Virus record (IMG/VR): IMGVR_UViG_3300029741_000087
Coordinates: 1-17,491 of that record
Length of the DNA stretch: 17,491 nucleotides
Direction: 5' to 3' (one strand)
Source: a virus
Lineage: Duplodnaviria; Heunggongvirae; Uroviricota; Caudoviricetes
This document shows, piece by piece, positions 604-17,065 of the stretch. Under the pieces are notes generated by a model. It was not told the origin of the DNA. It did not search any database and saw nothing but the letters and a program-made list of their open reading frames with translations. Every line of letters starts with the position of its first letter. Within the stretch, counting starts at the first letter, position 1. The position numbers were made by a program, and so were the translations under genes.

Positions 604-926
604 CGGCATTACTGACACTGGAAGAGATCAAGGCACATCTGCGTGTCGACCATGACGCGGATGATGACATGCTGATGGACAAGGTTCGTCAGGCTACCGC
701 CGTGCTGCTGGCCTACATTCAGGGCAGCCGGGATAAGGTGATTCGTGAGGACGGTGAACTGATCCCGGGCGAGGCATTAACCCGGATGAAGGGGGCTGCC
801 ATGCGACTGACCGGGATGCTGTACCGGAATCCGGATCTTGCGGAGCGGGAAGAACTGCTTCAGGGGGAGCTGCCGTTTTCTGTTTCCGTGCTGATTTACG
901 ATTTGCGTTGTCCGACGGTGTTATGA
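600..926 (+). CDS. Head-tail connector protein, gp6-like
   Basis: 108 aa; N-terminus LTLEEIKAHLRVDHDADDDML matches the pattern I recall for the HK97 gp6 connector family (recalled, not searched). Start overlaps the upstream stop (ATGA), suggesting translational coupling. Confidence 0.7.
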   Translation: MTALLTLEEIKAHLRVDHDADDDMLMDKVRQATAVLLAYIQGSRDKVIREDGELIPGEALTRMKGAAMRLTGMLYRNPDLAEREELLQGELPFSVSVLIYDLRCPTVL

Positions 927-935
927 GGAGGGGGA

Positions 936-1286
936 ATGGCAATATCTGCAGGTCGTCTGACACAGATGATAAGTGTTCTGAACCCGGTGTTAACCCGTAA
1001 TGCTGCCGGAGAAATGACGGAAGAATGGGTGTCATGCGGGAAAATTCATGCGGATATCCGTGGCAGGAGCAGCCGGGAGCGGATGCAGTCCGGTGCGGAA
1101 ATGGCGCAGGCGGAAATCCGCATCTGGGTGCGCGGTCAGTCCGGTCGGGAAATCACGGCAGCGTCACGACTTCATGTGCTGAGTGGTCCATGGCGTGACC
1201 GGATCCTGAACGTTGTCGGGCTGCCCGTGCCGGATGCGACCGGCGGACGTCTGGAAATTCTCTGTCGGCTGGGAGGGGAAAAATGA
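936..1286 (+). CDS. Head-tail adaptor / head closure protein
   Basis: 116 aa ORF with a GAGGAGGGGG Shine-Dalgarno 6-14 nt upstream of the ATG. Size and position between the gp6-like and gp10-like genes fit a head closure protein. Assignment is by position and size, not by a recognised motif. Confidence 0.55.
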   Translation: MAISAGRLTQMISVLNPVLTRNAAGEMTEEWVSCGKIHADIRGRSSRERMQSGAEMAQAEIRIWVRGQSGREITAASRLHVLSGPWRDRILNVVGLPVPDATGGRLEILCRLGGEK

Positions 1287-1729
1287 TCGAAACCCTGCTG
1301 GATTTTTCGGGGCTGGAGGACATCAGCCGCGATTTGCAGCTTCTGAGTGGTACGGAAAACAACCGGGTGCTGCGTGAGGCAACCCGTGCGGGTGCGAATG
1401 TGCTGAAAGAAGAAGTGGTGTCACGGGCACCGGTGCGCAGGGGAAAACTGCGCCGCAATGTGGTGGTCCTTTCCCGGCGCTCCCGCGATGGCGGGATGGA
1501 ATCCGGTGTCCATATCCGTGGTGTTAATCCGGACACCGGTAACAGCGATAACACCATGAAGGTGGATAACCCGCGCAATGCTTTCTACTGGCGGTTTGTG
1601 GAAATGGGGACCGTGAATATGCCACCGCACCCGTTTGTGCGCCCGGCGTTTGATGTGCGCAGTGAACAGGCAGCGCAGGTGGCGATTGCTCGGATGAACC
1701 GGGCCATTGATGAGGTACTGAGACGATGA
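1283..1729 (+). CDS. HK97 gp10-family phage protein (neck / tail attachment)
   Basis: 148 aa; C-terminal NAFYWRFVEMGT...HPFVRPAFD resembles the conserved gp10-family motif (FLEFGT...PFLRPA) as I recall it. ATGA overlap with the upstream stop. Confidence 0.7.
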   Translation: MIETLLDFSGLEDISRDLQLLSGTENNRVLREATRAGANVLKEEVVSRAPVRRGKLRRNVVVLSRRSRDGGMESGVHIRGVNPDTGNSDNTMKVDNPRNAFYWRFVEMGTVNMPPHPFVRPAFDVRSEQAAQVAIARMNRAIDEVLRR

Positions 1730-2070
1730 CGGAGGCGGATTTGTATCCTCATCTGGCGCATCTTGCCGGCGGGCAGGTGTACCCGTATGTGGTCCCCCTG
1801 CTGGATGGCAGGCCGTCGGTAGCGCTTCCGTGGGTGGTTTTCAGCCTGATTTCATCGGTGTCTGCGGACGTGATGGGCGGGCAGGCGGAGTCCTCAGTGG
1901 CGGTGCAGATAGACGTTTATGCCGGGACTGTGACGCAGGCGCGTCAGATACGTCAGGACGCCCGTGAAGCCATAATGCTGCTGGCCCCGGGATCCGTCAG
2001 TGAAATGCAGGACTATATTCCGGAAAACCGCTGTTACCGTGCAACCCTGGAGTTTCAGGTCACGGTGTGA
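1726..2070 (+). CDS. Tail completion / tail terminator-like protein
   Basis: 114 aa; ATGA overlap with the gp10-like gene; lies immediately upstream of the major tail protein gene. Assignment is positional. Confidence 0.5.
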   Translation: MTEADLYPHLAHLAGGQVYPYVVPLLDGRPSVALPWVVFSLISSVSADVMGGQAESSVAVQIDVYAGTVTQARQIRQDAREAIMLLAPGSVSEMQDYIPENRCYRATLEFQVTV

Positions 2071-2098
2071 CTTTTTCTTTTTTCTACAAAACCCATAC

Positions 2099-2119
2099 CC
2101 CGCCGCGTGCGGGTTTTTT
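2099..2119 (+). terminator. Short GC stem-loop followed by a T-run, upstream of the major tail protein gene (possible attenuator)
   Basis: cccgc (2099-2103) pairs with gcggg (2109-2113), 5-nt loop, then tttttt at 2114-2119. Stem is only 5 bp. Confidence 0.3.
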
Positions 2120-2136
2120 ATTATCAGGAGGCAGAA

Positions 2137-2852
2137 TGTCTGCTTTGTATGAACGCTCACAGCTGACGCAGGTGATGATTTCATCTGCCCCGGCGACTGC
2201 TGAAACTATGGATAAGGCGGAATATCTGCGCCTGGACTGCACCATCAAGGAAGTCCAGTTCACCGCCGGTCAGAAACAGGATATTGATGTGACCACGCTC
2301 TGCTCCACAGAGCAGGAGAATATCAACGGTCTGGGGGCGTCGTCTGAGATTTCCATGTCGGGTAATTTTTATCTGAATCAGGCCCAGAACGCCCTGCGTG
2401 ATGCCTATGACAATGACGCGTTGTATGCGTTTAAGGTGCTGTTTCCGTCCGGTAAGGGCTTTAAATTCCTGGCGGAAGTGCGCCAGCACACCTGGTCATC
2501 CGGTACCAACGGCGTGGTGGCTGCAACGTTCTCACTGCGTCTGAAAGGCAAACCGGTGTCCTTTGTGGTACCGCTGGCGTTTGTGAAAAATCTGGATAAG
2601 ACACTTACCGTGAATACCGGTGCGCTGCTGACAATGTCAGTCAGTGCCAACGGGGGAACGCCGCCGTATAAATACGCCTGGAAGAAGGATGGTCAGCCGG
2701 TTGACGGGCAGACGACAGACACCTTCAGTAAGCCAGGTGCGCAGTCCGCCGATGCGGGGAAATATACCTGCGTGGTGACCGATTCGGCAGAGAAAGCACA
2801 GAGTGTGACGTCTGTTGAATGCACCGTGACAGTGAGCGCAGCCGCCGGATAA
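2137..2852 (+). CDS. Major tail (tube) protein with C-terminal Ig-like domain
   Basis: ATG at 2137 is preceded by AGGAGG at 2125-2130; the track's 2067 GTG start has no Shine-Dalgarno and runs through the hairpin. The C-terminal ~80 aa (PPYKYAWKKDGQPVDG...GKYTCVVTD) is a classic Ig-like fold signature, as found on lambda V-type tail proteins. Position is upstream of the G/GT chaperones. Confidence 0.75.
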
Positions 2853-2866
2853 GGGGATGGGTCATC

Positions 2867-3241
2867 ATGAAAAAGGATCTGAAAACGCTGGCGCTGGCCA
2901 GACTGTCAGGGTTTCGTCATAAAACGGTGAAGGTGCCGGAATGGGGTAATGTCAGCGTGGTGCTGCGGGAGCCTTCGGCAGAGGCCTGGTATCTGTGGCA
3001 GGACGTGCTCAATGGTGATGGAGAGGATGACGATACTCTGTCGGTGGTGGCGAAAACCCGCCGTAACCTGGAAGCGGATGTGACGCTGTTCTGCGATGTC
3101 CTGTGTGATACGGATCTGCAACGGGTGTTCACTCCGGACGACCGTGAGCAGGTGCTGGCCGTCTATGGTCCGGTACATGCCCGCTTGCTGCGTCAGGCAC
3201 TGGAACTGATCGCTGATGCAGAGTCGGTCAGAAAAAAGTAG
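2867..3241 (+). CDS. Tail assembly chaperone (lambda G analogue)
   Basis: ATG at 2867 preceded by AAGGGGA at 2851-2857. About 124 aa, acidic. Sits between the major tail protein and the tape measure, and ends in a slippery heptamer. The track's 2819 start is an upstream extension. Confidence 0.65.
   Translation: MKKDLKTLALARLSGFRHKTVKVPEWGNVSVVLREPSAEAWYLWQDVLNGDGEDDDTLSVVAKTRRNLEADVTLFCDVLCDTDLQRVFTPDDREQVLAVYGPVHARLLRQALELIADAESVRKK
3232..3238 (+). promoter_or_regulatory. Programmed -1 ribosomal frameshift site (A AAA AAG) at the end of the G-like ORF
   Basis: In the G frame the last codons are AGA AAA AAG TAG, so X XXY YYZ is A AAA AAG (3232-3238). The -1 frame is open from 3232 through the ATG at 3265 to the stop at 3544-3546. 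Confidence 0.6.
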
Positions 3242-3593: not shown

Positions 3594-6500
3594 ATGGCGA
3601 CGTTACGTGAACTGATTATCAAAATTTCGGCAAATTCACAGTCATTCCAGTCGGAGATCCAGCGGGCGTCCCGTATGGGCAGTGAATATTACCGGACCCT
3701 GCAGAATGGCGGACGTCAGGCTGCTGCGGCAGCCAGGGAGCAGTGCCGGGCTCTGGCTGAGCTGAACAGCCAGTTGACGGAAATCCGCGCTTCGGCTGTC
3801 GGAATGACCAGTGCGTTTGCCGGTGCCTTTGCCACCGGACACCTGATTTCGCTGGCAGATGAATGGAGCTCCGTGAATGCCCGTCTGAAACAGGCGTCGC
3901 AGTCATCGGATGAATTTGCGTTATCACAGAAAGTGCTGATGGACATCAGCCAGCGGACAGGCACCGCATTTTCGGATAATGCGACCCTGTTTGCCCGTTC
4001 GGCTGCCTCGATGCGTGAATATGGTTACAGTGCTGATGATGTGCTGAAGGTGACGGAGGCCATTTCGACAGGGCTGAAAATTTCCGGTGCCAGTGCGGCA
4101 GAGGCGGGTTCGGTGATCACCCAGTTCAGCCAGGCGCTGGCACAGGGGGTGTTGCGCGGCGAGGAATTTAATTCGGTCAATGAAAGTGGGGACCGGATCA
4201 TTCGCGCACTGGCTGCAGGCATGGGCGTGGCCCGTAAGGATCTGAAGGCGATGGCGGACGATGGTCAACTGACGGCGGATAAAGTCGTTCCCGCGTTAAT
4301 CAGCCAGCTGGGGATATTGCGTGATGAATATGCAGCCATGCCGGAAACGGTGTCTGACGGGATCACGAAGGTGGAAAACGCCTTTATGGCCTGGGTGGGC
4401 GGCGCGAATGAGGCCAGCGGAGCGACGAAAACGCTCTCCGGCGCACTGAACGGTGTGGCCGGAAATATTGATACCGTGGCAACAGCTGCGGGTGTGCTGG
4501 TTGCTGTCGGGGTGGCCCGGTACTTTGGTAATCTGGCTTCCGGAGCGATGTCTGCCACGGCAGGACTTGTGACCGCTGCACGTAATGAAGTGGCACTGGC
4601 TGAGGCCCAGTTAAGGGGAACGCAGATTGCCACGGCGCGGGCAAGGGCAGCCGTGTACCGGGCTCAGCAGGCTGTGGCGGCAGCCCGCGGGACTGAGATG
4701 CAGATTGCGGCAGAGGCCCGTCTGGCGGTCACACAGGAACGCCTGAACAGAAATATTGCTGCCAGAACCGCCGCCCAGAATGCGCTGAACAGTACAACGG
4801 CGGTGGGCTCACGTCTGATGAGCGGTGCGCTGGGACTGGTTGGAGGCGTACCCGGACTGGTGATGCTGGGAGCTGCCGCATGGTACACGCTGTACCAGAA
4901 TCAGGAGCAGGCCAGGGAGTCTGCGCGCCAGTATGCACTGACGATTGATGAAATCGCGCATAAAACGCCATCAATGTCTCTGCCTGAAGCCTCAGATAAT
5001 GAAGGGCGAACACGGGAGGCGCTGACAGAGCAGAACCGGCTGATTGATGAGCAGGCCAGCCGGGTGAAATCCCTGCAGGAAAAAATCGCCGGGTATCAGT
5101 ATGTGCTGGCTAATCCGGGCTGGACGACCGGTAACGGCTTCATGATAAACCATCTGACATCGGTGAAAACTGTAACGGAAGAGCTTGCTCAGGCAACAGA
5201 GCAGTTTGCTGTTGAGCAGTCCCGTCTGGCACAGATGCAGGAAAAAGCGCAGTCCATTCAGGATGTGCTTGCCGGACTGGAAGAGCGCCGTGTTGTGTTA
5301 ATTCGTCAGCAGGCAGCAGAGCAGAATAAAGCGTATCAGTCACTGCTGGTCATGAACGGTCAGCATACGGAATTCAACCGCCTGCTGGGGCTGGGTAATG
5401 AACTGCTGCAACAGCGTCAGGGACTGGCGAGTGTACCGCTGCGACTGCCACAGGCCACTCTGGATGATAAACAGCAGAGCGCCCTGAATAACACAGAGCG
5501 TCAACTGGCCCTGTCCCGGCTGAAAGGGGAAGAAAAAGAGCGTGCCCGGCTGGGGTATGCGGCGGATGACCTTGGTCTGGTGGGGGATACGTATCAGGAG
5601 GCGAGGCAGCGTTACATCCGTAATTCGATGGAAGCCTGGCGCAATAATGAGGCGAATAAACCCAAATCCCGGGCCGGAAAATCAGGGGCGGAAAAAGCGG
5701 AAGACAGTTTTTCCCGTCTGCTGAAGCAGCAGAAGGAACAACTGGCACTGGCCGGGAAGAATACAGAACTGGCAAAACTGAAATACCAGACCTCGCAGGG
5801 CGAGCTGAAAACCCTGACGGAGATACAGAAGCAGGAGCTGCTGCGCAATGCTGCCCTGATTGACCAGAAGAAAATCCGGGAGCAGTTACGGGCCCGGGAG
5901 GAGACCCTGAAAAATGATAATGCAGACGCAAGGGCATCAAATGACGCTGAGCTGCTGGGGTACGGGCAGGGTGAGCGGGTCCGTGAACGGATGCGGGAGC
6001 TGCAGCAGATTCGTGACGGCTACCGCCAGAAGGATGCGGACCTGCAGTCTCAGTATCAGACAGGGGATATCAGTGAGGATTTTTACAGACAGGCGCTGGC
6101 GCAGAATGCGCAGTATCTGAGTGAACGCCTTAAAGACCAGGAGGCTTTTTATGCCGAATCGGATGCGCAGCGTGCTGACTGGCAGAAAGGGCTGCAGGAA
6201 GGGCTAAGTAACTGGGTGGACAGCGCATCAGATTACGCTTCACAGGCAGCACAGCTTGCGACAGACGGTATCTCAGGGATGGTGAATAACATCACGGAGA
6301 TGCTGAACGGAAATAAAGTGGAATGGCGCAGCTGGGCTGCATCAATCCTGCAGGAAATATCAAAAGTTCTTATGAATGCGGCCATTGTCAACGGCATTAA
6401 GATGGCGGCAAACAGTATGTCCGGTGCAGGAGGATTTTTCGGCAGTATAGGCAACTGGCTGGGTGGCGCGGTGGCAAATGCAAAAGGCGGCGTTTATACC

Positions 6501-6836
6501 TCGGCAAACCTGAGTGCATACAGTAACAGTATTGTGGACACGCCCACGTACTTTGCCTTTGCAAAAGGGGCAGGGCTGATGGGGGAGGCCGGACCTGAAG
6601 CCATCATGCCCCTGACCCGGGCAGCGGATGGTTCACTCGGCGTGCGTGCGGTGGGCAGTATGAACGGCAGTGCGGGTCTGGTGTATTCCCCGGTGTACCA
6701 CATCGCCATTCAGAATGACGGCGCTAACGGGCAGATAGGGCCGGAAGCGGCGGGCACCCTTGTGCAACTGATTGACCAGCGGGTACAGGCGGTGATGTTA
6801 TCCATGCGTCGTGACGGAGGAATGCTGAGTGGATGA
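3594..6836 (+). CDS. H: Tail tape measure protein
   Basis: 1080 aa, Ala/Gln-rich, predicted coiled-coil-like, with a hydrophobic Gly-rich segment. C-terminus (QNDGANGQIGPEAAG...RRDGGMLSG) resembles the lambda H C-terminus as I recall it (NNDGTNGQIGPAAL...RDGGLFSG). Shine-Dalgarno AGGAGAAAGG upstream. Confidence 0.9.
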   Translation: MATLRELIIKISANSQSFQSEIQRASRMGSEYYRTLQNGGRQAAAAAREQCRALAELNSQLTEIRASAVGMTSAFAGAFATGHLISLADEWSSVNARLKQASQSSDEFALSQKVLMDISQRTGTAFSDNATLFARSAASMREYGYSADDVLKVTEAISTGLKISGASAAEAGSVITQFSQALAQGVLRGEEFNSVNESGDRIIRALAAGMGVARKDLKAMADDGQLTADKVVPALISQLGILRDEYAAMPETVSDGITKVENAFMAWVGGANEASGATKTLSGALNGVAGNIDTVATAAGVLVAVGVARYFGNLASGAMSATAGLVTAARNEVALAEAQLRGTQIATARARAAVYRAQQAVAAARGTEMQIAAEARLAVTQERLNRNIAARTAAQNALNSTTAVGSRLMSGALGLVGGVPGLVMLGAAAWYTLYQNQEQARESARQYALTIDEIAHKTPSMSLPEASDNEGRTREALTEQNRLIDEQASRVKSLQEKIAGYQYVLANPGWTTGNGFMINHLTSVKTVTEELAQATEQFAVEQSRLAQMQEKAQSIQDVLAGLEERRVVLIRQQAAEQNKAYQSLLVMNGQHTEFNRLLGLGNELLQQRQGLASVPLRLPQATLDDKQQSALNNTERQLALSRLKGEEKERARLGYAADDLGLVGDTYQEARQRYIRNSMEAWRNNEANKPKSRAGKSGAEKAEDSFSRLLKQQKEQLALAGKNTELAKLKYQTSQGELKTLTEIQKQELLRNAALIDQKKIREQLRAREETLKNDNADARASNDAELLGYGQGERVRERMRELQQIRDGYRQKDADLQSQYQTGDISEDFYRQALAQNAQYLSERLKDQEAFYAESDAQRADWQKGLQEGLSNWVDSASDYASQAAQLATDGISGMVNNITEMLNGNKVEWRSWAASILQEISKVLMNAAIVNGIKMAANSMSGAGGFFGSIGNWLGGAVANAKGGVYTSANLSAYSNSIVDTPTYFAFAKGAGLMGEAGPEAIMPLTRAADGSLGVRAVGSMNGSAGLVYSPVYHIAIQNDGANGQIGPEAAGTLVQLIDQRVQAVMLSMRRDGGMLSG

Positions 6837-7170
6837 GATTAAGACTCTTCACTGGTGTCCCCGGGAAGGGATGCAGGTGACGGAGAAACCGTCGGTGATG
6901 ACGGTGAAGTTTGGCGACGGTTATCAGCAGCGTCGTCCGGCAGGACTGAATGCGCAACTGAAGACCTTTCAGGTGGTTTTTCGGGTGACAACGGATGCTG
7001 AGCGGGAGGCACTGTCCGCGTTTCTGTCATGGCATGGTGGTTACCGGGCTTTTTTGTGGAAGCCCCCGAAACATAACCGGACGGTCAGGGTGGTGTGCCG
7101 GGAGTGGAGTATTACGGATAACGCCCGGTACAGTGATTTCAGTTGCACGATAGAGCAGGTAGTTAGATGA
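6829..7170 (+). CDS. M: Minor tail protein M
   Basis: 113 aa; KFGDGYQQRRPAGLNAQLKTF...HGGYRAFLWKPP...EQVV aligns closely with lambda M (RFGDGYSQRAPAGLNANLKTY...HGGWKSFLWTPP...EQVV) from memory. GTG start overlaps the H stop. Confidence 0.9.
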   Translation: MDEIKTLHWCPREGMQVTEKPSVMTVKFGDGYQQRRPAGLNAQLKTFQVVFRVTTDAEREALSAFLSWHGGYRAFLWKPPKHNRTVRVVCREWSITDNARYSDFSCTIEQVVR

Positions 7171-7255
7171 GAATTATCCTATAAATCATTCTTTAGTGTT
7201 TAGTTGTTAATTATTTTTAATCTGTCTTGTCAGAAAGTGCGAAATCGATCTTGCA

Positions 7256-7275
7256 TTTACATTTTGTTACATAAT
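7256..7275 (+). promoter_or_regulatory. OmpR-box-like sequence in the porin upstream region
   Basis: TTTACATTTTGTTACATAAT resembles the ompF F1 (TTTACTTTTGGTTACATATT) and ompC C1 (TTTACATTTTGAAACATCTA) OmpR sites as I recall them. Lies about 95-115 bp upstream of the porin ATG in a very AT-rich tract (7171-7368). Confidence 0.4.
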
Positions 7276-7368
7276 ATAAATTGAACTAAGAATTTGTATT
7301 AAAATATTTTAATTTTTGTTCATGACATCTGAATGCATGAATAGTTCAGTTTAAATAAGGATTAAATC

Positions 7369-8523
7369 ATGAAAAAAATGACAGTGGCACTTTCTGCTGT
7401 AGCAGTGGCAGTGATGTTTGCTGCGGGGGCGCAGGCAGCAGAAGTTTATAATAAAGATGGTAATAAACTGGATCTTTACGGGCGTGCAACCGCTCTGCAT
7501 TACTTCTCGGATGATAAAGGTAATGACGGAGACCAGACTTATGCTCGTCTCGGCTTTAAAGGCGAAACGCAGATTAATGATCAACTGACCGGATTTGGTC
7601 AGTGGGAATACCAGTTCTCTGGTAATAAAACGGAATCTGAAGGTTCCGCGGGAAATAAAACCCGTCTGGCATTTGCAGGTCTGAGATTTGCAGATGTTGG
7701 TACCATTGATTACGGACGTAACTATGGTATTGCTTACGATGTCGGATCATATACTGACGTACTGCCTGAGTTTGGTGGTGATGGCTGGACGCAGACCGAT
7801 AACTTTATGACGGCCCGAACTTCCGGTGTCCTGACTTACCGTAATACAGACTTCTTCGGACTGGTTGATGGTCTGAATTTTGCGGCGCAGTATCAGGGCA
7901 AAAATGAGCGTGATGACCTTCAGAAGGCTAATGGCGACGGGTATGGTTTCTCGGCCAGCTATGAGTTTGATGGTTTTGGTTTTGTCGCTGCGTATACCAA
8001 GTCAGATCGTACTGATAAGCAGGTTCAGGGGTTGAATGGTACTGCAGATGTTCTTGATCCTGCATCAGGTAAAAAGGTTGGAGAAAAAGCAGTTGACTCA
8101 GGTAGTGTGGCAAAAGGTAAACATGCTGAATTCTGGGGAACTGGTCTTAAATATGATGCCAATAACCTGTATCTGGCAGCAGTGTATTCTGAAACCCAGA
8201 ATATGACGACCTTTGGTGATCAAGGTGTTGCGGATAAAGCTCAGAATATCGAAGCCGTTGTTCAGTATCAGTTTGATTTTGGTCTGCGCCCGTCCCTTGC
8301 CTACCTTCAGTCCCGCGGACAGGATGTTATGGTTGGTGGTGTGAACCATGGCGATCAGGATCTGGTTAAATATATTGATGTCGGTGCGACTTATTACTTT
8401 AACAAGAATATGTCCACCTATGTTGATTATAAAATTAACCTGATTGATGAAAGTGAATTTACCCGGAAAGCCGGTGTTGCGACAGATAATATCGTTGCTG
8501 TGGGTATGACTTATCAGTTCTGA
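7369..8523 (+). CDS. General outer-membrane porin, OmpC/OmpF/PhoE family (phage moron)
   Basis: 384 aa. Cleavable signal peptide [23 protein letters not shown] followed by [15 protein letters not shown]; C-terminal ...VAVGMTYQF with terminal Phe, typical of beta-barrel porins. AAGGA Shine-Dalgarno before the ATG. The gene and its flanks are markedly AT-richer than neighbouring tail genes. Confidence 0.9.
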
Positions 8524-8545
8524 TTATTGCTGATAAGTTAATAAA

Positions 8546-8601
8546 TACGGGCCGTCTGCCCTTACAGGCGGCCTGTATCAATGAAAACACAGTTTTCATT
8601 G
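8546..8601 (+). repeat. Two adjacent stem-loops downstream of the porin stop
   Basis: Hairpin 1: 8546-8577 (tacgggccgtctg / caggcggcctgta, one G-U pair, 6-nt loop). Hairpin 2: perfect 10-bp inverted repeat caatgaaaac / gttttcattg at 8579-8601 with a 3-nt loop. Neither is followed by a U-tract. Confidence 0.4.
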
Positions 8602-8695
8602 GTCACTGCGATCAGCAATTGCCATCTGGCATGTGCTGATTTAACTTTCTGTTATTACCTTTATTGGTTTTATTTTAAATTGGACTTTTATTGTT

Positions 8696-8720
8696 CGGGG
8701 CGCGTCTGCGCCCCTTTTTT
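8696..8720 (+). terminator. Intrinsic terminator closing the porin moron, abutting the L start
   Basis: ggggcgc (8697-8703), loop gtct, gcgcccc (8708-8714), then tttttt at 8715-8720. Confidence 0.7.
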
Positions 8721-8732
8721 ATGGGCGGATAT

Positions 8733-9431
8733 ATGCAGGATATTCACGAAGAAAGCCTGAACGAGTCGGTTAAGTCAGAGCAGTCACCGCGGGTGGTGCT
8801 CTGGGAAATCGACCTGACGGTGCAGGGCGGTGAGCGGTATTTTTTCTGCAATGAGCTGAATGAAAAAGGGGAGCCGGTGACCTGGCAGGGGCGTGAATAT
8901 CAGGCGTACCCGATTGAGGGCAGCGGCTTTGAGATGAACGGAAAGGGCAGCAGTGCCCGCCCGTCGCTGACGGTGTCCAATCTTTTCGGCCTTGTCACCG
9001 GGATGGCGGAGGATTTGCAGAGCCTGGTGGGTGCCACGGTGGTCCGCCGCCGGGTGTATGCGCGTTTTCTTGATGCGGTGAACTTTGTGGCGGGGAATCC
9101 GGAGGCAGACCCGGAGCAGGAGCTGACGGACCGGTGGGTGGTGGAGCAGTTATCAGCGCTGACGGCCATGACGGCCTCGTTTGTGCTGGCGACACCGACG
9201 GAGACGGACGGGGCGCTGTTTCCCGGTCGCATCATGCTGGCGAACACCTGTATGTGGGATTACCGGGGCGATGAGTGCGGGTATAACGGTCCGGCAGTGG
9301 CGGATGAGTTCGACAACCCTACCACGGATATCCGGAAGGACAGATGCAGTAAATGCATGCGCGGGTGTGAGATGCGCGGCATGGCGGTCAATTTTGGCGG
9401 TTTCCTTTCCATCAATAAACTTTCGCAGTAA
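8733..9431 (+). CDS. L: Minor tail protein L
   Basis: Starting at ATG 8733 the protein MQDIHEESLNE...VVLWEIDL...GERYFFCNE...GEPVTWQGREYQ...FGGFLSINKLSQ is near-colinear with lambda L as I recall it (MQDIRQETLNE...FGGFLSINKLSQ). The track's 8691 start is an upstream extension through the terminator. Confidence 0.9.
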   Translation: MQDIHEESLNESVKSEQSPRVVLWEIDLTVQGGERYFFCNELNEKGEPVTWQGREYQAYPIEGSGFEMNGKGSSARPSLTVSNLFGLVTGMAEDLQSLVGATVVRRRVYARFLDAVNFVAGNPEADPEQELTDRWVVEQLSALTAMTASFVLATPTETDGALFPGRIMLANTCMWDYRGDECGYNGPAVADEFDNPTTDIRKDRCSKCMRGCEMRGMAVNFGGFLSINKLSQ

Positions 9432-9441
9432 ATCCCGGTTT

Positions 9442-10185
9442 ATGACACAGACTGAATCAGCGATTCTGGTGCATGCCCGGCGGTGTGCGCCAGCGGAGTC
9501 GTGCGGCTTCGTGATAAGCACCCCGGAGGGCGAACGGTACCAGCCCTGCGTGAATATCTCCGCAGAGCCGGAGGCGTATTTTCGTATTACACCGGAAGAC
9601 TGGCTGCAGGCACAGATGCAGGGGGAGATTGTGGCGCTGGTCCACAGTCATCCCGGTGGTCTGCCCTGGCTGAGCGAGGCGGACCGGCGGCTGCAGATAA
9701 AGAGTGCCCTGCCCTGGTGGCTGGTCTGCCGGGGTGAAATTCACCGGTTCCGCTGTGTGCCGCACCTGACCGGACGGCGCTTTGAACACGGTGTGACGGA
9801 CTGTTACACCCTGTTCCGGGATGCATACCATCTGGCGGGGATAACGCTGCCGGATTTTGTGCGTGAGGATGACTGGTGGCGCAACGGTCAGAACCTGTAC
9901 CTGGACAACCTGGCAGACAACGGCTTTTACCGGGTGTCTCCGTCCTGTGCACAGGCGGGCGATATCCTGCTGTGCTGCTTTGGTTCATCGGTGCCGAATC
10001 ATGCCGCCATTTACTGTGGCAACGGTGAACTGCTTCACCATATACCTGAACAACTGAGTAAACGGGAGAGGTATTCAGAGAAATGGCAACGACGAACGCA
10101 TTCTGTCTGGCGTCACCGCCACTGGTCCGCATCTGCCTTCACGGGGATTTACAACGATTTGGTCGCCGCATCAGCCTGTATGTGA
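9442..10185 (+). CDS. K: Tail assembly protein K (JAMM/MPN plus NlpC/P60 domains)
   Basis: Starts MTQTESAIL as in lambda K. JAMM motif HSHPGGLPWLSEAD (HxHx7Sx2D) and an NlpC/P60-like Cys/His pair (DCYTL, NHAAIY). The track's 9181 start overlaps L and is rejected. Confidence 0.9.
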   Translation: MTQTESAILVHARRCAPAESCGFVISTPEGERYQPCVNISAEPEAYFRITPEDWLQAQMQGEIVALVHSHPGGLPWLSEADRRLQIKSALPWWLVCRGEIHRFRCVPHLTGRRFEHGVTDCYTLFRDAYHLAGITLPDFVREDDWWRNGQNLYLDNLADNGFYRVSPSCAQAGDILLCCFGSSVPNHAAIYCGNGELLHHIPEQLSKRERYSEKWQRRTHSVWRHRHWSASAFTGIYNDLVAASACM

Positions 10186-10763
10186 ACACGGCAGCGGAGG
10201 CCATCCGTGCCCTGTCGCTGCAGGTGCCGGGATTCCGCGGTCAGATGAACGAAGGCTGGTATCAGATACGTATTGCCGGTGAGGATACCGCACCGGAGGC
10301 GGTGTACGCCCGTCTTCACGAACAACTGGGTGAGGGAGCGGTCATCCACATTGTGCCGCGACTGGCCGGAGCCGGGGGAAATGGTGTTTTTCAGGTGGTG
10401 CTGGGGGTTGCAGCGATTGTCGGGTCATTTTTCACTGGTGGTGCAACACTGGCGGCATGGGGCGCAGCCCTGAGTGCCGGAGGGCTGACTGCCACCACGA
10501 TGCTGTTCTCACTGGGTGCCAGCATGATACTGGGTGGTGTGGCTCAGATGCTGGCCCCGAAGGCAAAGACGCCGGAGTATAAAAGTACGGATAACGGTAA
10601 ACAGAACACGTATTTTTCGTCACTGGACAACATGATTGCCCAGGGTAACCCGATGCCGGTGCCTTACGGTGAAATGCTGGTTGGTTCACGACGGATATCC
10701 CAGGATATCAGCACCCGTGATGAGGGCGGAGACGGGAAAGTGGTGGTTATCGGACGGGGATAA
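10083..10763 (+). CDS. I: Tail assembly protein I
   Basis: MATTNAFCLASPPLVRICLHGDLQRFGRRI...NGKQNTYFSSLDNM...VVVIGRG aligns with lambda I (MAATHTLPLASPGMARICLYGDLQRFGRRI...VVVIGR) from memory. Overlaps the 3' end of K. Confidence 0.9.
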   Translation: MATTNAFCLASPPLVRICLHGDLQRFGRRISLYVNTAAEAIRALSLQVPGFRGQMNEGWYQIRIAGEDTAPEAVYARLHEQLGEGAVIHIVPRLAGAGGNGVFQVVLGVAAIVGSFFTGGATLAAWGAALSAGGLTATTMLFSLGASMILGGVAQMLAPKAKTPEYKSTDNGKQNTYFSSLDNMIAQGNPMPVPYGEMLVGSRRISQDISTRDEGGDGKVVVIGRG

Positions 10764-10866
10764 AAATAAAAAAATCCCGCAGAGTTAGCGGAGCTGCGGG
10801 AAGAGATACGAAGATTAACTGTAAGGAGTTATTATTATGTCACAGCAAAAAAAACGGTAACGCAGA
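10764..10866 (-). ncRNA. Candidate small RNA, cassette 1 (predicted from promoter and terminator; not a known family by sequence)
   Basis: Minus strand: TTCACA (10897-10892), 16-bp spacer, TATAAT (10875-10870), predicted start near 10864 at conserved GCGUUACC. Intrinsic terminator: hairpin 10800-10776 then U7 (10774-10768). No plausible ORF. Contains AACUCCUUACA. Confidence 0.5.
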
Positions 10867-10896
10867 GAAATTATAAGCGCCACTGGGATTTTGTGA

Positions 10897-10918
10897 AAAT
10901 GTGAAGAATTTCAGAAAT
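10897..10918. promoter_or_regulatory. CRP-like box (TGTGA-N6-TCAGA), cassette 1
   Basis: AAATGTGAagaattTCAGAaat; left half matches the CRP consensus AAATGTGA exactly, right half is TCAGA versus TCACA. Centre is about 43 bp upstream of the predicted minus-strand start. Confidence 0.45.
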
Positions 10919-10996
10919 TTTTTGCTGCAGAGGTGCAGGGAGCTTGCCGGGTATCTGTGGCAGAAGACAGAAAACATCATGCCGGGGTTAAGGGAT

Positions 10997-11096
10997 AAAA
11001 AAATCCCGCAGAGTCCGGAGACTGCGGGACAGAACCGATGAAGATTAACGTTCAAGGAGTTTTGTTTTTATTGACCCGAAAAAACTGTAACGCCCC
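10997..11096 (-). ncRNA. Candidate small RNA, cassette 2
   Basis: Minus strand: -10-like TATCAT (11105-11100), start near 11094 at conserved GCGUUACAG, terminator hairpin 11028-11005 then U7 (11003-10997). Contains AACUCCUUGAA. The -35 is poor. Confidence 0.4.
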
Positions 11097-11126
11097 GGAA
11101 TGATATCTGCCACGGGAACGTACAGA

Positions 11127-11148
11127 AAATGTGAAGAAATTCAGACTT
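11127..11148. promoter_or_regulatory. CRP-like box, cassette 2
   Basis: AAATGTGAagaaatTCAGActt; same spacing to the -10 hexamer and conserved GCGTTAC as in cassette 1. Confidence 0.4.
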
Positions 11149-11230
11149 TTTCTGTCGCAGGTTTACAGAACGGATGACCGCCAGGGTACCAGTGGCGTAA
11201 ATGAGCAGGATGTTGTGGTGTGGCTGAAGC

Positions 11231-11336
11231 AAAAAAATCTCCCGTAATATCGCCGGATACTGACGGGAGACGAATAGTCACCTTAAGGAGGTCTGATAAT
11301 TATTGCTTTTATTGAGCAAAAAAACTGTAACGCTGC
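11231..11336 (-). ncRNA. Candidate small RNA, cassette 3
   Basis: Minus strand: TATAAT (11345-11340), start near 11334 at conserved GCGUUACAG, terminator with perfect 8-bp stem (11271-11264 / 11245-11238) then U7 (11237-11231). Contains GACCUCCUUAAGG. Confidence 0.5.
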
Positions 11337-11366
11337 GTCATTATAGTGGCTACAGGCAATTGCCGG

Positions 11367-11388
11367 AAATGTGAAGAATTTCAGAAAT
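11367..11388. promoter_or_regulatory. CRP-like box, cassette 3
   Basis: AAATGTGAagaattTCAGAaat; same spacing to the TATAAT at 11345-11340 as in cassette 1. Confidence 0.45.
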
Positions 11389-11404
11389 TTTATTCCGTCA
11401 TGAC

Positions 11405-11436
11405 ACAGGCACCCTCCGGGGTGCCTGTCGTTTTCT
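11405..11436 (+). terminator. Plus-strand intrinsic terminator about 40 nt upstream of the J start
   Basis: Perfect 10-bp stem acaggcaccc (11405-11414) / gggtgcctgt (11419-11428), loop tccg, followed by cgttttct. Confidence 0.5.
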
Positions 11437-11478
11437 GGCATAAACAGATTCAGACATCAGACAGGAGAGGGGGACAGA

Positions 11479-14400
11479 GTGGGTAAAGGGGGCGGCAAGG
11501 GGCACACACCGCGTGAGGCGAAGGACAATCTCAAATCCACGCAGATGATGAGCGTGATTGATGCCATTGGTGAGGGACCGGTGGAAGGTCCGGTGAAGGG
11601 ACTGCAGAGTATTCTGGTGAACAAAACCCCGCTGACGGACACGGACGGTAATCCCGTGATACACGGTGTGACCGCCGTCTGGCGTGCCGGGGAGCAGGAG
11701 CAGACACCGCCGGAAGGCTTTGAGTCCTCCGGGGCAGAAACCGCACTGGGCGTGGAGGTGACGAAGGCAAAGCCGGTGACGCGCACCATCACGTCAGCGA
11801 ACATTGACCGTCTGCGGGTCACCTTCGGGGTACAGTCACTGGTGGAGACCACCTCAAAGGGTGACCGTAATCCCTCTTCTGTCCGCCTGCTGATTCAGCT
11901 TGAGCGTAACGGGCACTGGGTGACGGAGAAGGATGTCACCATTAACGGCAAGACCACCTCGCAGTACCTGACGTCGGTGATTCTGAATAATCTCCCTGAG
12001 CGCCCCTTTAACATCCGGATGGTCAGGGTGACGGCGGACAGCACCACGGACCAGCTGCAGAACAGAACGCTGTGGTCGTCATACACCGAAATCATCGATG
12101 TGAAACAGTGCTACCCGAACACGGCGATTGTGGGGCTGCAGGTGGATGCGGAGCAGTTTGGTGGCCAGCAGCTGACGGTGAACTACCATATCCGTGGTCG
12201 CATCATTCAGGTGCCGTCAAACTATGACCCGGAAAAACGCACCTACAGCGGTATCTGGGACGGGAGTCTGAAACCGGCATACAGCAATAACCCGGCCTGG
12301 TGCCTGTGGGACATGCTGACCCACCCGCGCTACGGCATGGGAAAACGCCTGGGGGCCCCGGACGTGGACAAGTGGGCACTGTATGCCATCGGGCAGTACT
12401 GTGACCAGACGGTCCCGGATGGTTTCGGGGGAACAGAGCCGCGGATGACTTTCAATGCGTACCTGTCACAGCAGCGTAAGGTGTGGGATGTCCTGGGGGA
12501 TTTCTGCTCGGCGATGCGCTGTATGCCGGTATGGAACGGCCAGACGCTGACGTTCGTTCAGGACCGTCCGTCGGATGTGGTGTGGCCGTACACCAACAGC
12601 GATGTGGTGGTGGATGATAACGGCGTGGGGTTCCGCTACAGCTTCAGTGCCCTGAAGGACCGGCACACGGCGGTGGAGGTGAATTACACCGACCCGCAGA
12701 ACGGCTGGCAGACCTCCACGGAACTGGTGGAAGACCCGGACGCCATCCTGCGCTACGGGCGCAATCTGCTGAAGATGGATGCGTTCGGCTGTACCAGCCG
12801 CGGTCAGGCCCACCGTGCCGGACTGTGGGTGATAAAGACAGAACTGCTGGAAACGCAGACGGTGGATTTCACGCTCGGGTCACAGGGGCTGCGGCACACG
12901 CCCGGTGACATCATTGAAATCTGTGATAACGACTACGCCGGGACCCTGACCGGTGGACGCATCCTGTCCATCGATGCCGCCAGCCGTACCCTGACGCTGG
13001 ACCGTGAGGTGATACTGCCGGAAGCAGGGACATCGACGGTGAACCTGATTAACGGCAGCGGTAAGCCGGTGCGCGTGGACATCACTGCACACCCCGCCCC
13101 TGACCGGATACAGGTCAGCGTCCTGCCTGATGGCGTGGAGACATACGGTGTGTGGGGACTCTCCCTGCCGTCACTGCGTCGTCGCCTGTTCCGCTGTGTT
13201 TCCATCCGGGAAAACACGGACGGCACCTTTGCCATCACGGCAGTGCAGCACGTACCGGAAAAAGAAGCCATCGTGGATAACGGGGCCACCTTTGAGCCGC
13301 TGTCCGGTTCACTGAACAGCGTCATCCCGCCGGCAGTGCAGCACCTCACGGTGGAGGTGAGTGCCTCAGACGGCCAGTATCTGGCGCTGGCGAAATGGGA
13401 CACGCCGCGGGTGGTGAAGGGCGTGCGCTTCAGTCTGCGCCTGACCAGTGGCAGTGGTGAAAACAGCCGCCTGGTGACCAGCGCTATCACTGCCGACACG
13501 GAGCACCGTTTCAGTGGCCTGCCGCCCGGGGAATACACCCTGACGGTCAGGGCGATAAACAGCTACGGCCAGCAGGGCGAACCTGCCACCACCACGTTCC
13601 GGATTAACGCACCGGCAGCACCGGCCAGCATTGAACTGACGCCGGGGTATTATCAGATAACGGCGGTCCCGCATCTTACGGTGTATGACCCGACGGTACA
13701 ATTTGAGTTCTGGTTTTCGGAGGCAAAAATCGCAGACACATCTCAGGTGGAAACCTCTGCCCGTTATCTGGGGACAGGCAGCCAGTGGAGTGTCTCCGGC
13801 CCGCACATTAAGCCGGGGAAGGATTTCTGGTTTTATGTGCGCAGCGTCAACCTGGTGGGGAAATCTGCGTTTGTGGAAGCCAGTGGCCGGGCCAGCAATG
13901 ATGCGGAAGGGTATCTGGGGCTGTTTCGGGAAAAGATAGGAAAACTGCATCTGGCACAGGGGATGTGGGAGCTGATTGATAACAGCCAGCTTGATGATGA
14001 GATGGCGGAGATGAAGACCACCATCACAGAAACCCGCAATGAAATCACGCAGACGGTCAGTAAAACCCTGGAAGACCAGAGCGCCACCATACAGCAGATA
14101 CAGCGGGTGCAGACAGACACAAATAACGACCTGGCTGCGCTGTACATGCTGAAGGTGCAGAAAACAAAAAACGGCATTCCGTATGTTGCCGGTATTGGTG
14201 CGGGGATTGAGGATGCTGATGGCCAGCCCCTGAGCAATATACTGCTGCAGGCGGACCGTATCGCGATGATTAACCCGGAGAACGGCAACACCACGCCGCT
14301 GTTTGTGGCGCAGGGGAATCAGCTGTTCATGAACGATGTGTTCCTGAAGCGACTGTTTGCGGTGAGCATCACCTCGTCCGGCAATCCCCCGACGTTCTCC

Positions 14401-14946
14401 CTGACGCCGGAGGGCAGGCTGACGGCCCGCAATGCGGACATCAGCGGACATATCAGTGCGAACTCGGGCACGCTGAATAATGTCGTGATAGCGGAGAACT
14501 GTACGATAAATGGCACGCTGAAAGCGGAGAACATTATTGGTGATCTTGTGAAATGTGCAGGGGTGGCTTTTCCGGTGGATGGTAGTTACCTTGCGAACGG
14601 TACACGAACGCTGACGGTGTATGACGATCACAGCTTTGACCGGCAGATTATAATCCCGCCGATAATCTATGTCGGGTCAAAACAGGAATCCCGCACCAGT
14701 AATGACATCTGGACAGAGTGCTTCCTGCATGTTGATCAGAACGGACGCCGGATTTATTCAGGCAGGTCAGTGACAGAGCCGGGAATTTTCAGCGGGATCA
14801 TCGATATGCCAGCCGGTCATGGTCATATCACCCTGAGTTTTACCGTAAGTTCACGACGTCAGAACGGGAGTTTTGGCAGTTCACGTATCAGTAACCTTCA
14901 GGCGATAGTGGTGAAGAAAAACAGCGCGGGGATCAGTATCCGCTGA
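11479..14946 (+). CDS. J: Host specificity / central tail fibre protein J
   Basis: 1155 aa from a GTG start. N-terminus [22 protein letters not shown] and long internal stretches (for example [35 protein letters not shown]) are near-identical to lambda J as I recall it. The C-terminal ~150 aa are more divergent. Confidence 0.95.
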
Positions 14947-15144: not shown

Positions 15145-15285
15145 ATGTCGCAAAAACCGTTAAAAACCACCGTGATTTGTATCACGGTAGTGCTCATTAT
15201 CTGGATCACCCACACTTCACTGTGCGAGTTCCGGTTCCGGATAGCGGGCGCGGAGATTGCGGCGTTCTTACAGTGTAAGCAGTAA
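15145..15285 (+). CDS. Hok/Gef-family type I toxin (small membrane peptide); not in the ORF track because it is shorter than 60 aa
   Basis: 46 aa: MSQKPLKTTVICITVVLIIWITHTSLCEFRFRIAGAEIAAFLQCKQ. One transmembrane stretch followed by SLCEFRFR...EIAAF, matching the Hok signature (Hok of plasmid R1: ...[23 protein letters not shown]) from memory. AGGAG at 15131-15135, 9 nt before the ATG. Confidence 0.7.
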   Translation: MSQKPLKTTVICITVVLIIWITHTSLCEFRFRIAGAEIAAFLQCKQ

Positions 15286-15427: not shown

Positions 15428-17065
15428 ATGACAGTCAGAATATCGGGTGTGCTGAAGGATGGTACGGGAAAAGCGGTACCGGGATGCACGATAGAGCTGA
15501 AAGCGCGCCGCACAACGGAGACGGTGATTGTCACCACGGTGGCGTATGGTCAGCCGGGGGAAACCGGCAGTTACAGTATGGATGTTGAGCCGGGGTTGTA
15601 CCGGGTGACGCTGAACACGGAAGGGTACGCGCCGTCATATGTGGGTGACATTCTGGTGAAGGCGGATTCTGCACCGGGAACGCTGAATAAATATCTGATG
15701 GACCTGGAAGACGCACAGTATTACCCGAAAGCCCTTGCAGAGCTGGAAGCGGTGGCAGCGGAAATCCTGAAACGTGCGGAAGCGTCAGCGGCGAGTGCGG
15801 AGGAGGCAAAAAAACGGGCAGAGAATGCGCGGGGACCGAAGGGGGATAAGGGGGACACCGGGCCGCAGGGTATTCCCGGGCCAAAAGGCGATACCGGCGA
15901 GCGGGGGCCAAAGGGTGAGCGTGGTGAGACAGGACCACAGGGGCTTCAGGGTGTGAAAGGTGAACGGGGAGAGAAGGGCGAAAAAGGCGAGCCGGGAGGA
16001 CCGGATGCGACGACGGCACAGAAGGGAATTGTGCAGTTAAGCAGCGCAACGGACAGTGATGATGAAACGAAGGCAGCCACCCCGAAAGCGGTGAAAGCGG
16101 CAATGGACAAAGCGGACGGATGCCTGGAGAAAGCGAAAAACGGTGACGATATCCCGGATAAGGTGAAGTTTCTGAACACCGTGGGAGCAGCCAGAGTATA
16201 CGGGCGGGACATTCATACGGAGACCGGTGAATGGACCACGAGTGAGTTTGTGGCCTGGCTGAAAGAAAAGGGGGCATTTGACCAGCCTTACTGGATGATG
16301 AAGGCATCACTGCCTGCGGCAATGAATAAAGTCATCACAGATGTCGGACCGGGAAAACTCAATCTGGGTGGCTGTGTCATTGAGGTGATGGGAACGTATG
16401 AGGCTGCCATAGTCCGGGTCACCATTGGCGAATACGGTGCAACGGGGTTTATTAATGGCACGGTCTGTACCTGTACGGTTTACGGCGACACACGGTATTT
16501 CCACTGGCGGGTGGATTACAGCACAAAAAACAAACCGGATACGGTCAGCCAGCGGGATGCCAGCACGACGCAGAAAGGTGTGGTGCAGTTAAGCAGTGAT
16601 ACTGGCAGTAATGACGAAACAAAGGCAGCCACGCCGAAGGCCGTGAAGGCGGCAATGGATGTGGCAAATGAAGCGAAAACAAAGGCAGAAGAGGCTGCAG
16701 CAGGAGGTGGTGTTCCCGGTCCGAAAGGGGAGAAAGGCGACCCCGGTCCCAGAGGTGAGCGTGGAGAAACCGGGCCGATGGGGCCGCCCGGGGCATCAGA
16801 CGGGAAGAGCCGGGTTGTGGGTATCAGGCTGGGTAATAAACAGACTTATGCGCCGCAAACAGACAGCACTACATGGGCAGTGGATTTGGATATTGGTGCG
16901 ATGATTACGGGGATTGGCGGTTACAACGACGGAAACAAAACCCTTATTGACAGGGTATCTTACAGGCCGCTTCAGGTGACATTTGATGGTTCTCAGTGGC
17001 GTACAGTCAGCGTGGGTGAGTATGTGTCGTCAGGAGCTTCGGGGTTTGAGTATTTTCCATTATAA
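15428..17065 (+). CDS. stf: Side tail fibre protein (Stf-like) with collagen-like Gly-X-Y tracts
   Basis: 545 aa. N-terminus MTVRISGVLKDGTGKAVPGCTIELKARR matches lambda Stf (MAVKISGVLKDGTGKPVQNCTIQLKARR) from memory. Two copies of the fibre repeat QKG(I/V)VQLSS...ETKAATPKAVKAAMD. Gly-X-Y runs at aa 136-191 and 427-455. Confidence 0.9.
   Translation: MTVRISGVLKDGTGKAVPGCTIELKARRTTETVIVTTVAYGQPGETGSYSMDVEPGLYRVTLNTEGYAPSYVGDILVKADSAPGTLNKYLMDLEDAQYYPKALAELEAVAAEILKRAEASAASAEEAKKRAENARGPKGDKGDTGPQGIPGPKGDTGERGPKGERGETGPQGLQGVKGERGEKGEKGEPGGPDATTAQKGIVQLSSATDSDDETKAATPKAVKAAMDKADGCLEKAKNGDDIPDKVKFLNTVGAARVYGRDIHTETGEWTTSEFVAWLKEKGAFDQPYWMMKASLPAAMNKVITDVGPGKLNLGGCVIEVMGTYEAAIVRVTIGEYGATGFINGTVCTCTVYGDTRYFHWRVDYSTKNKPDTVSQRDASTTQKGVVQLSSDTGSNDETKAATPKAVKAAMDVANEAKTKAEEAAAGGGVPGPKGEKGDPGPRGERGETGPMGPPGASDGKSRVVGIRLGNKQTYAPQTDSTTWAVDLDIGAMITGIGGYNDGNKTLIDRVSYRPLQVTFDGSQWRTVSVGEYVSSGASGFEYFPL

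Follow-up and report, generated by a model that had tools for sequence, protein, structure and literature searches.

A rare lambda-type J receptor-binding allele and a tail-operon porin cassette in a lambdoid Escherichia coli prophage: probably joined by descent and position, not as a matched pair

The tip protein J sets which Escherichia coli cells the lambdoid phages, Shiga-toxin (Stx) phages among them, can enter. Phage PA-2 uses OmpC as its receptor and makes a porin, Lc, and PA-2 lysogens lose OmpC; in other siphophages, exclusion genes adjoin the gene for the receptor-binding protein, as llp does in T5 and cor in phi80 and N15. In Rtp, a gene for an accessory protein in the adsorption module neutralises the receptor (bioRxiv 10.64898/2026.04.02.716166). 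The receptors documented for the fold of the J receptor-binding domain (RBD) are LamB (structure 8xcj), OmpC (9wcb; phage 434; PMC11338833) and, after point mutations, OmpF (PMC11101478), and phi330, a siphophage of enterohaemorrhagic E. coli (EHEC), depends on OmpC (PMC12502783). Modular diversity of the J RBD is already known, and so are phage-borne porins that come with an anti-porin RNA. Here we describe a stretch of 17,491 nucleotides (17.5 kb; IMG/VR record IMGVR_UViG_3300029741_000087, hereafter the window), which spans the tail part of a lambdoid prophage of E. coli, with every gene on the + strand, and whose best DNA matches are prophages in E. coli strains that make Shiga toxin (STEC). 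It holds an intact gene J (11479-14946, + strand; 1155 residues) with an uncharacterised class of RBD allele and, between the tail genes M and L, a cassette with a porin gene. The allele class, the distinct tail-operon porin clade with its hypervariable loop and the IpeX-like 3′ untranslated region (3′UTR) of that porin gene appear to be new. We favour, with moderate confidence, the view that this J carries a rare and modular lambda-type RBD allele that probably uses a porin as its receptor, and that the M/L cassette serves as a general module for porin replacement, combining a porin with an IpeX-like RNA, and moves with the tail lineage whatever the RBD. The best explanation of the locus is accordingly one in which the J tip and the porin cassette are linked by descent and position and do not form a matched pair.

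The J of the window (central tail fibre, or tip attachment protein) belongs to the same family as the gpJ of lambda (8iyk, 8xck, 8xcj) and shares its domain order, length class and RBD fold. It scored 2261.9 bits against the curated NCBIfam family NF049904 (lambda_TipJ; cut-off 1950), with residues 1-1155 covered, and its Pfam domains followed one another in the expected order (FNIII-A_GpJ, Phage-tail_3, Ig_J, Ig_J_second, Phage_Tail_Tip and Ig_GpJ_C). The overall identity to lambda J (NC_001416) was 65% by BLASTP, and this was spread unevenly along the protein: 73.2% over residues 1-820, 13.8% over residues 821-900 (13939-14178, +), where the window J has 28 additional residues, 70.0% over residues 901-1020, and 41.5% over residues 1021-1155 (14539-14946, +), which make up the RBD. 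The initial annotation, made from the sequence alone, had described the N-terminal ~85% of J as near-colinear with lambda J, which overlooks the highly divergent block after residue 820. By position, this block is the counterpart of the alpha-helical shaft in lambda gpJ (domain naming after PMC11101478), to which it is essentially unrelated in sequence; the same block is 99% identical in the Stx2d phage 1720a-02 (KF030445). As the shaft of lambda gpJ flips and refolds upon receptor binding (PMC11101478), the transmission of the signal from tip to hub may differ between the window J and lambda.

The proposal that the C terminus of J is far more diverged than its body was borne out by the identities above (the last 135 residues compared with residues 1-820), and the strings that had been quoted in its support were recovered by BLASTP, namely FPRQRESSVDWPSGTRT in lambda and a differing string in the window J. 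The terminal ~100 residues, which had been called different, do lie within the diverged last 135 residues (41.5% identity), but they belong to the same domain (PF12421, with the gpJ RBD fold) and are not unrelated to that of lambda. Divergence had been taken to begin at 14400, and the interval 14400-14946 (residues 975-1155) is 50.3% identical to lambda J; the module boundary in related prophages lies instead at ~14480-14547 (J residues ~1001-1023). It is here, within or just past a conserved J motif, that nucleotide similarity to related Stx phages and prophages ends, which indicates that the RBD is an exchangeable module.

The family model PF12421 (Ig_GpJ_C; tip attachment protein J, C-terminal receptor binding domain) covers residues 1038-1154. 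A structure model of residues 974-1155, predicted from a six-sequence alignment and of moderate confidence (mean predicted local distance difference test score 63, with 70-89 in the RBD part), matched the gpJ RBD entries 8xck, 8xcj and 9wcb with E values of ~1e-16 to 1e-17 and a template-modelling score of 0.65; the solved structures for J are of lambda-derived proteins only, and 9wcb, among these matches, is a gpJ variant bound to OmpC. We considered whether the divergence from lambda is concentrated in the loops and rejected this, as the predicted strands were 43.6% and the non-strand positions 38.6% identical to lambda. We call the RBD allele of the window type i and compared it over the last 135 residues, where it showed 41-47% identity to the RBDs of lambda (which binds LamB), 434 and A8 (which both bind OmpC) and the other types linked to the cassette.

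Among 50,697 phage records, only 1720a-02 shares type i, with 98% identity over the last 152 residues. Over that same length, lambda is 45.6% and 434 is 40.5% identical to type i, and the other 242 matching phage records all lie below 60% and, among the matches listed, at ~50% at most. The J proteins of the window and of 1720a-02 have equal length and are 97-100% identical segment by segment, so that this type of J belongs to an infectious phage. 1720a-02 lysogenises K-12 and Citrobacter rodentium and forms no plaques on K-12 strains, and papers that use this phage report no receptor for it. Of 5426 complete E. coli genomes, 101 had the type-i RBD, at 181 places in total and in as many as four copies in a single genome. 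A word-indexed protein search with the 135-residue RBD returned seven short fragments only, all from E. coli, and is little informative on other genera. Type i is hence carried by the Stx2d phage of the C. rodentium mouse model of EHEC and by ~2% of complete E. coli genomes, the majority of them STEC, and knowing its receptor would help to explain the host range of Stx phages.

Type i shares its fold also with the OmpC-binding gpJ of 434 and of A8 (9wca/9wcb, with OmpC of EDL933). Aligning the J C terminus with J proteins of known receptor, as the initial annotation had suggested, did set type i apart from all of them, but placed it no closer to the OmpC binders (41% identity to 434 and 44% to A8) than to lambda, and OmpC use can therefore not be inferred from this comparison. 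Nor did type i show the close identity, contacting loops included, of a LamB-specific RBD, since it is 41.5% identical to lambda and carries an indel in the first variable segment. That segment is short in type i, with an SY.A.GT pattern as in A8, and is three residues shorter than in lambda. As the documented receptors of this fold are all trimeric porins, we can fairly infer that the receptor of type-i J is a trimeric outer-membrane porin as well, and from its sequence a receptor switch away from LamB is plausible.

The porin cassette (7171-8732) is 1.56 kb long, has a low G+C content and is inserted exactly between M (6829-7170, +; PF05939), its left border, and L (8733-9431, +; PF05100, 309.8 bits), its right border, two genes that abut directly in lambda and in 1720a-02. 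The phage-borne porin of the initial annotation is real: the gene (7369-8523, +; G+C 0.40-0.47) is intact, encodes 384 residues and scores 480 bits against PF00267. It had been placed next to J, and it does belong to the same tail operon, but at a distance of ~3 kb before the start of J and ~6 kb from the RBD. As read from the sequence, the signal peptide ends in AQA, the mature protein starts with AEVYNKDG and the C terminus is YQF, so that the family model, the signal peptide and the C-terminal aromatic residue together identify an enterobacterial general porin. The protein scored 507.7 bits against the NCBIfam OmpC subfamily NF007841, just over the cut-off of 484, and fell below the cut-offs of the NCBIfam OmpF and PhoE equivalogs. 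Its identity was 58% to K-12 OmpC and 67-69% to Lc, NmpC and OmpD, and RefSeq annotates it merely as OmpC. In a broad protein search, it fell into a tight and nearly all-E. coli cluster (at least 78% identity), followed by a tier at 62-71% that consists of OmpD/NmpC/Lc-type porins of Citrobacter, Salmonella and E. coli phages.

At a coverage of at least 80%, the porin gene was present in 109 of 5426 E. coli genomes. All six of the other loci that we fetched had it at the same M/L junction, in combination with two types of head module, and this position was kept across cassette alleles of 80-100% nucleotide identity. The encoded porins are 84-99% identical, with nearly all differences within a surface loop at residues ~216-249 (8014-8115, +), which we take, by alignment to the OmpC topology, to be the equivalent of L5; 0 to ~26 residues of its length are changed relative to OmpC, and the neighbouring loop is 15 residues shorter than that of OmpC. 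A literature search found no publication that describes the cassette. In several of the fetched prophages other genes are damaged: the annotation gives a frameshifted portal gene for four of the six (L005, L006, L009 and L010) and one interrupted by IS600 for L008, and in some of them J, the tape-measure gene or another of the tail genes has become a pseudogene. Many cassette carriers may be defective prophages that keep the porin cassette.

The closest counterparts of the cassette porin are Lc of PA-2 and NmpC of DLP12, which are likewise general porins of the OmpD/NmpC group on lambdoid prophages. The cassette porin differs from them in that it forms a distinct clade, at the identity of 67-69% given above rather than at close identity, and in its long hypervariable loop. 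Its location differs as well: lc and nmpC lie on the opposite strand in lambda-oriented records, within the Q-lysis region (in DLP12 between quuD, the Q homologue, and essD), whereas the cassette lies between M and L on the + strand of the late operon. Upstream of lc, the PA-2 record (J02580) annotates CRP sites, while the cassette has an OmpR-like box. This element, CTTGCATTTACATTTTGTTACAT, resembles an OmpR box and lies at 7250-7272 in the AT-rich region upstream of the porin gene (7171-7368, +). A 17-nt run, CTTGCATTTACATTTTG, together with ACAT, recurs without change upstream of K-12 ompC, in a block that is presumably the OmpR C1 site, and the TTTACATT core and the blocks ATTGAA, AATATTTT and ATGACA were kept across seven cassette alleles.

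The 3′UTR of the porin gene (8524-8725, +; ~200 nt) is both conserved and structured. Its mean identity over seven alleles was 88%, which exceeds that of parts of the coding sequence, and it folds as three hairpins, in which eight pairs are altered on both sides with pairing retained, with a canonical intrinsic terminator (8697-8714, followed by a T-run) at its end. An unpaired block, UUAACUUUCUGUUAUUACCUUUAU (8641-8664), is a candidate seed. In a test for contiguous helices on this block, with shuffles of a segment picked after inspection, it contained a 15-nt complement to the ribosome-binding site (RBS) of ompC (p ~0.002 vs shuffles) and a 13-nt complement to that of ompF (p ~0.02 vs shuffles), and no complement to the RBS of the porin gene itself. 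The 3′UTR of PA-2 lc and DLP12 nmpC, in which we take IpeX to be placed, served as a positive control and gave a 15-nt complement to ompC and a 10-nt complement to ompF. It shares with the cassette the blocks CTTCTGTTAT and TTACC.TT.AT and a GGGGCG...CGCCCC terminator with a T-run, and the overall layout is alike, with a hairpin after the stop codon, two blocks complementary to the RBS of ompC and ompF, and a terminator. In its location at the 3′ end of a porin gene, its intrinsic terminator and the blocks that it has in common with DLP12 and PA-2, the cassette 3′UTR is therefore IpeX-like. IpeX is reported to lower OmpC and OmpF (review, PMC8065619). Exclusion by way of the porin, the class of mechanism that the initial annotation had put forward, gains indirect support from the OmpR-like box and this 3′UTR.

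Several observations weigh against such a regulatory role. A simple promoter scan upstream of the porin gene gave no match to the sigma-70 consensus on the + strand, and the OmpR-like box lies ~110 nt from the porin ATG vs ~190 nt in ompC, in an arrangement that is not colinear. The p-values for complementarity (0.002 and 0.02) were obtained post hoc in an AT-rich region, and the complementarity should therefore be taken as a lead, not as a demonstration. The most divergent alleles (L009 and L010) have no complement to the ompC RBS but match ompC more weakly, over 12 nt at its start codon, and their ompF complement is extended to 14 nt. When the full-length 3′UTR was paired with the porin leaders, p was near 0.05 for ompC and ompF and best for the start region of the cassette porin itself (0.009), which gives no support for target specificity; we discarded these duplex energies, as the duplexes were giant and unrealistic. 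A search of the whole window against Rfam at the gathering threshold gave no match. We also considered svsR, a small RNA (sRNA) of a lambdoid prophage that represses a receptor, and set it aside, because it is located at the 3′ end of cI and has no relation to the window.

The initial annotation had further suggested that the phage porin and the J tip form a specific pair, the porin displacing or altering the receptor that J has switched to. We cross-tabulated cassettes and RBDs among the best 60 matches listed for each, which makes the counts lower bounds, and found no support for the pairing. The cassette stands beside at least four RBD types: type i (in the window and in strain 89-3156), type ii (strains 48 and PS2C), type iii (317 and STEC17-183) and, in strain G1/2, a J C terminus of unrelated sequence; a 434-type RBD was considered as one of these and rejected, as 434 is yet another type. 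Out of the best 60 cassette loci, 25 continue through a type-i RBD, and in the other 35 the match stops at the RBD boundary, where a non-type-i RBD follows. Porin loop and RBD do not covary, given that the window and strain 48 have near-identical porin loops with different RBDs, and the window and strain 89-3156 have the same RBD with different porin loops. Conversely, a cassette can adjoin no more than 78 of the 181 type-i places, which leaves at least 103 (at least 57%) without one, and 1720a-02 carries the type-i RBD without the cassette. The cassette also departs from llp, cor and the Rtp gene. Those genes, each inherited together with the receptor-binding protein that it matches, encode small lipoproteins or accessory proteins able to bind the cognate receptor; the candidate here is a full porin together with an RNA, and the co-inheritance with one cognate RBD type for which we tested was not found.

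Reading the cassette as unpaired has to contend with the fact that type i accounts for ~42% of the cassette-linked J (25 of the best 60 loci) vs ~1% of the J-bearing places overall, an enrichment strong enough that some functional link may exist, and with the presence of the cassette in at least 39 of the 60 listed type-i genomes, where ~2.3 of 101 would be expected by chance. Together with the IpeX-like 3′UTR and a first variable RBD segment that resembles A8 rather than lambda, these numbers could be explained if type-i J used OmpC or OmpF and the cassette were its cognate self-exclusion partner, removing or replacing the receptor as in PA-2. We consider this unlikely in view of the several RBD types beside the cassette, the majority of type-i places without it, and the occurrence of identical loop alleles with different RBDs and vice versa. 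In at least 17 genomes, moreover, the cassette prophage has another RBD and type i sits in a different prophage, and a genome may hold up to four type-i copies; that the cassette shares genomes with several type-i prophages is a weak argument against an efficient exclusion of type-i phages. The co-occurrence itself is confounded, since the carriers are related STEC lineages with recombining co-resident lambdoid prophages and the counts are not independent. We read the association as the outcome of common ancestry of the tail modules (94-99% identical) and frequent RBD swapping. Type iii, at 69-76% identity, is close to the RBD of A8, a natural-variant gpJ chimera that binds OmpC (PMC11338833), so at least some cassette carriers probably adsorb to OmpC, which fits a logic like that of PA-2 without tying the cassette to type i.

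The three other accounts differ in what they ask of the porin. It would be irrelevant to adsorption if the type-i RBD still bound LamB, perhaps in other alleles, an option that is consistent with a fold and framework residues as in lambda, with scores of 127 bits against the lambda RBD and 124 against that of A8 (a marginal difference), and with the reported use of LamB as the receptor of several different coliphages, phage 21 included (PMC12803456). This is nonetheless rather improbable, because type i is diverged from lambda in strands and loops alike, at 41.5% identity across the RBD, and small changes in the RBD shift receptor use (PMC11101478; PMC11338833); 1720a-02 also forms no plaques on LE392, a K-12 strain on which lambda plates, although this is a weak point, as many Stx phages plate poorly. 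A possibility that we take more seriously, though still short of likely, and that overlaps with our best explanation, is that the porin is cargo for host fitness (permeability to bile or antibiotics, or in response to osmolarity) or for antigenic variation, in the gut, of a major surface protein and has no selected role in exclusion. Hypervariability of an exposed loop would be expected from immune or colicin pressure as well as from phages, the cassette is retained regardless of the J type and is frequent among STEC isolates from cattle and humans, and the OmpR-like box suggests host-style osmoregulation. Complementarity of the 3′UTR to the start regions of ompC and ompF suggests, to the contrary, an active replacement of the host porins, and the cassette lies inside the tail and adsorption module; neither point is decisive. 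Finally, the cassette porin, or the surface state that it makes, might itself be the receptor for type-i tips, with cassette lysogens as the preferred hosts of type-i phages. This would account for the up to four type-i J per genome in cassette genomes, even where the cassette prophage has another RBD, for the poor infection of cassette-free K-12 by 1720a-02, and for the hypervariable exposed loop. We hold it to be very improbable, as 1720a-02 can lysogenise both K-12 and C. rodentium in the absence of the cassette, as no cassette appears among the matches listed for at least 21 of the 60 listed type-i genomes, and as common lineage with prophage recombination is a simpler account of the co-occurrence.

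In the explanation that we prefer, with tip and cassette linked by descent and position, the type-i RBD would have been swapped in as a module at the conserved J junction, and the trimeric J tip would dock on a trimeric outer-membrane porin, so that the receptor, or the receptor allele, is probably other than that of lambda. The cassette porin would have its own OmpR-responsive promoter, active in the lysogen, and its 3′UTR would act like IpeX by pairing with the RBS of both ompC and ompF. The major porins of the host would thereby be turned down and the phage porin substituted for them, which would remodel the cell surface against any OmpC- or OmpF-dependent phage or colicin, irrespective of the resident RBD. 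The analysis shows the sequences, domains and fold, the distribution and non-exclusive linkage of tip and cassette, and the conservation, covariation and complementarity of the RNA; expression of the porin, repression of ompC and ompF, exclusion and the identity of the receptor are here inferred from sequence. If this explanation is true, the classic porin switch of PA-2 (Lc and IpeX) has in the cassette a second version that is independently placed, and susceptibility to OmpC- or OmpF-dependent phages and colicins and to antibiotics would be altered in ~2% of complete E. coli genomes.

The remaining features of the window surround these two elements. Upstream of M lies the tape-measure gene H (3594-6836, +), and L is followed by gene K and by gene I (10083-10763, +). 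Between I and J there is an ORF-poor gap (ORF, open reading frame) of 715 bp (10764-11478), vs 133 bp in 1720a-02. The gap contains three tandem units of ~230-240 bp (e.g. 10848-10958, 11078-11188 and 11318-11428), each with a TATAAT-like promoter on the minus strand (the one at 10897-10870 matches 11 of 12 positions) and with the conserved motifs GCGTTAC.GTTTTTT and CTCCTT, and minus-strand intrinsic terminators lie at 10792-10766, 11021-10995 and ~11270-11222. Judged from these sequence features, the array looks like three sRNA genes of ~95 nt that are antisense to the tail operon; against Rfam, at E values up to 1, the gap gave a chance-level match only. Related Stx phages hold part or all of one unit, unannotated, with 22-45% of the gap matched.

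Downstream of J, a small ORF of 46 residues (MSQKPLKTTVICITVVLIIWITHTSLCEF..., 15145-15285, +) begins 199 nt past the J stop codon. Related prophages annotate a Hok/Gef family toxin at an equal offset, and this Hok/Gef-type ORF sits in the slot that lom/Ail occupies in lambda, 434 and some cassette prophages; Rfam detected no Sok/hok RNA family in the window. It is followed by a side-tail-fibre gene (15428-17065, +) with the N-terminal domain of lambda Stf, two collagen-like Gly-X-Y stretches and phage fibre repeats, and an stf-type gene likewise lies downstream of J in 1720a-02. Located just past J, this gene provides a second adsorption determinant, and the side tail fibre that it is predicted to encode could also shape the host range.

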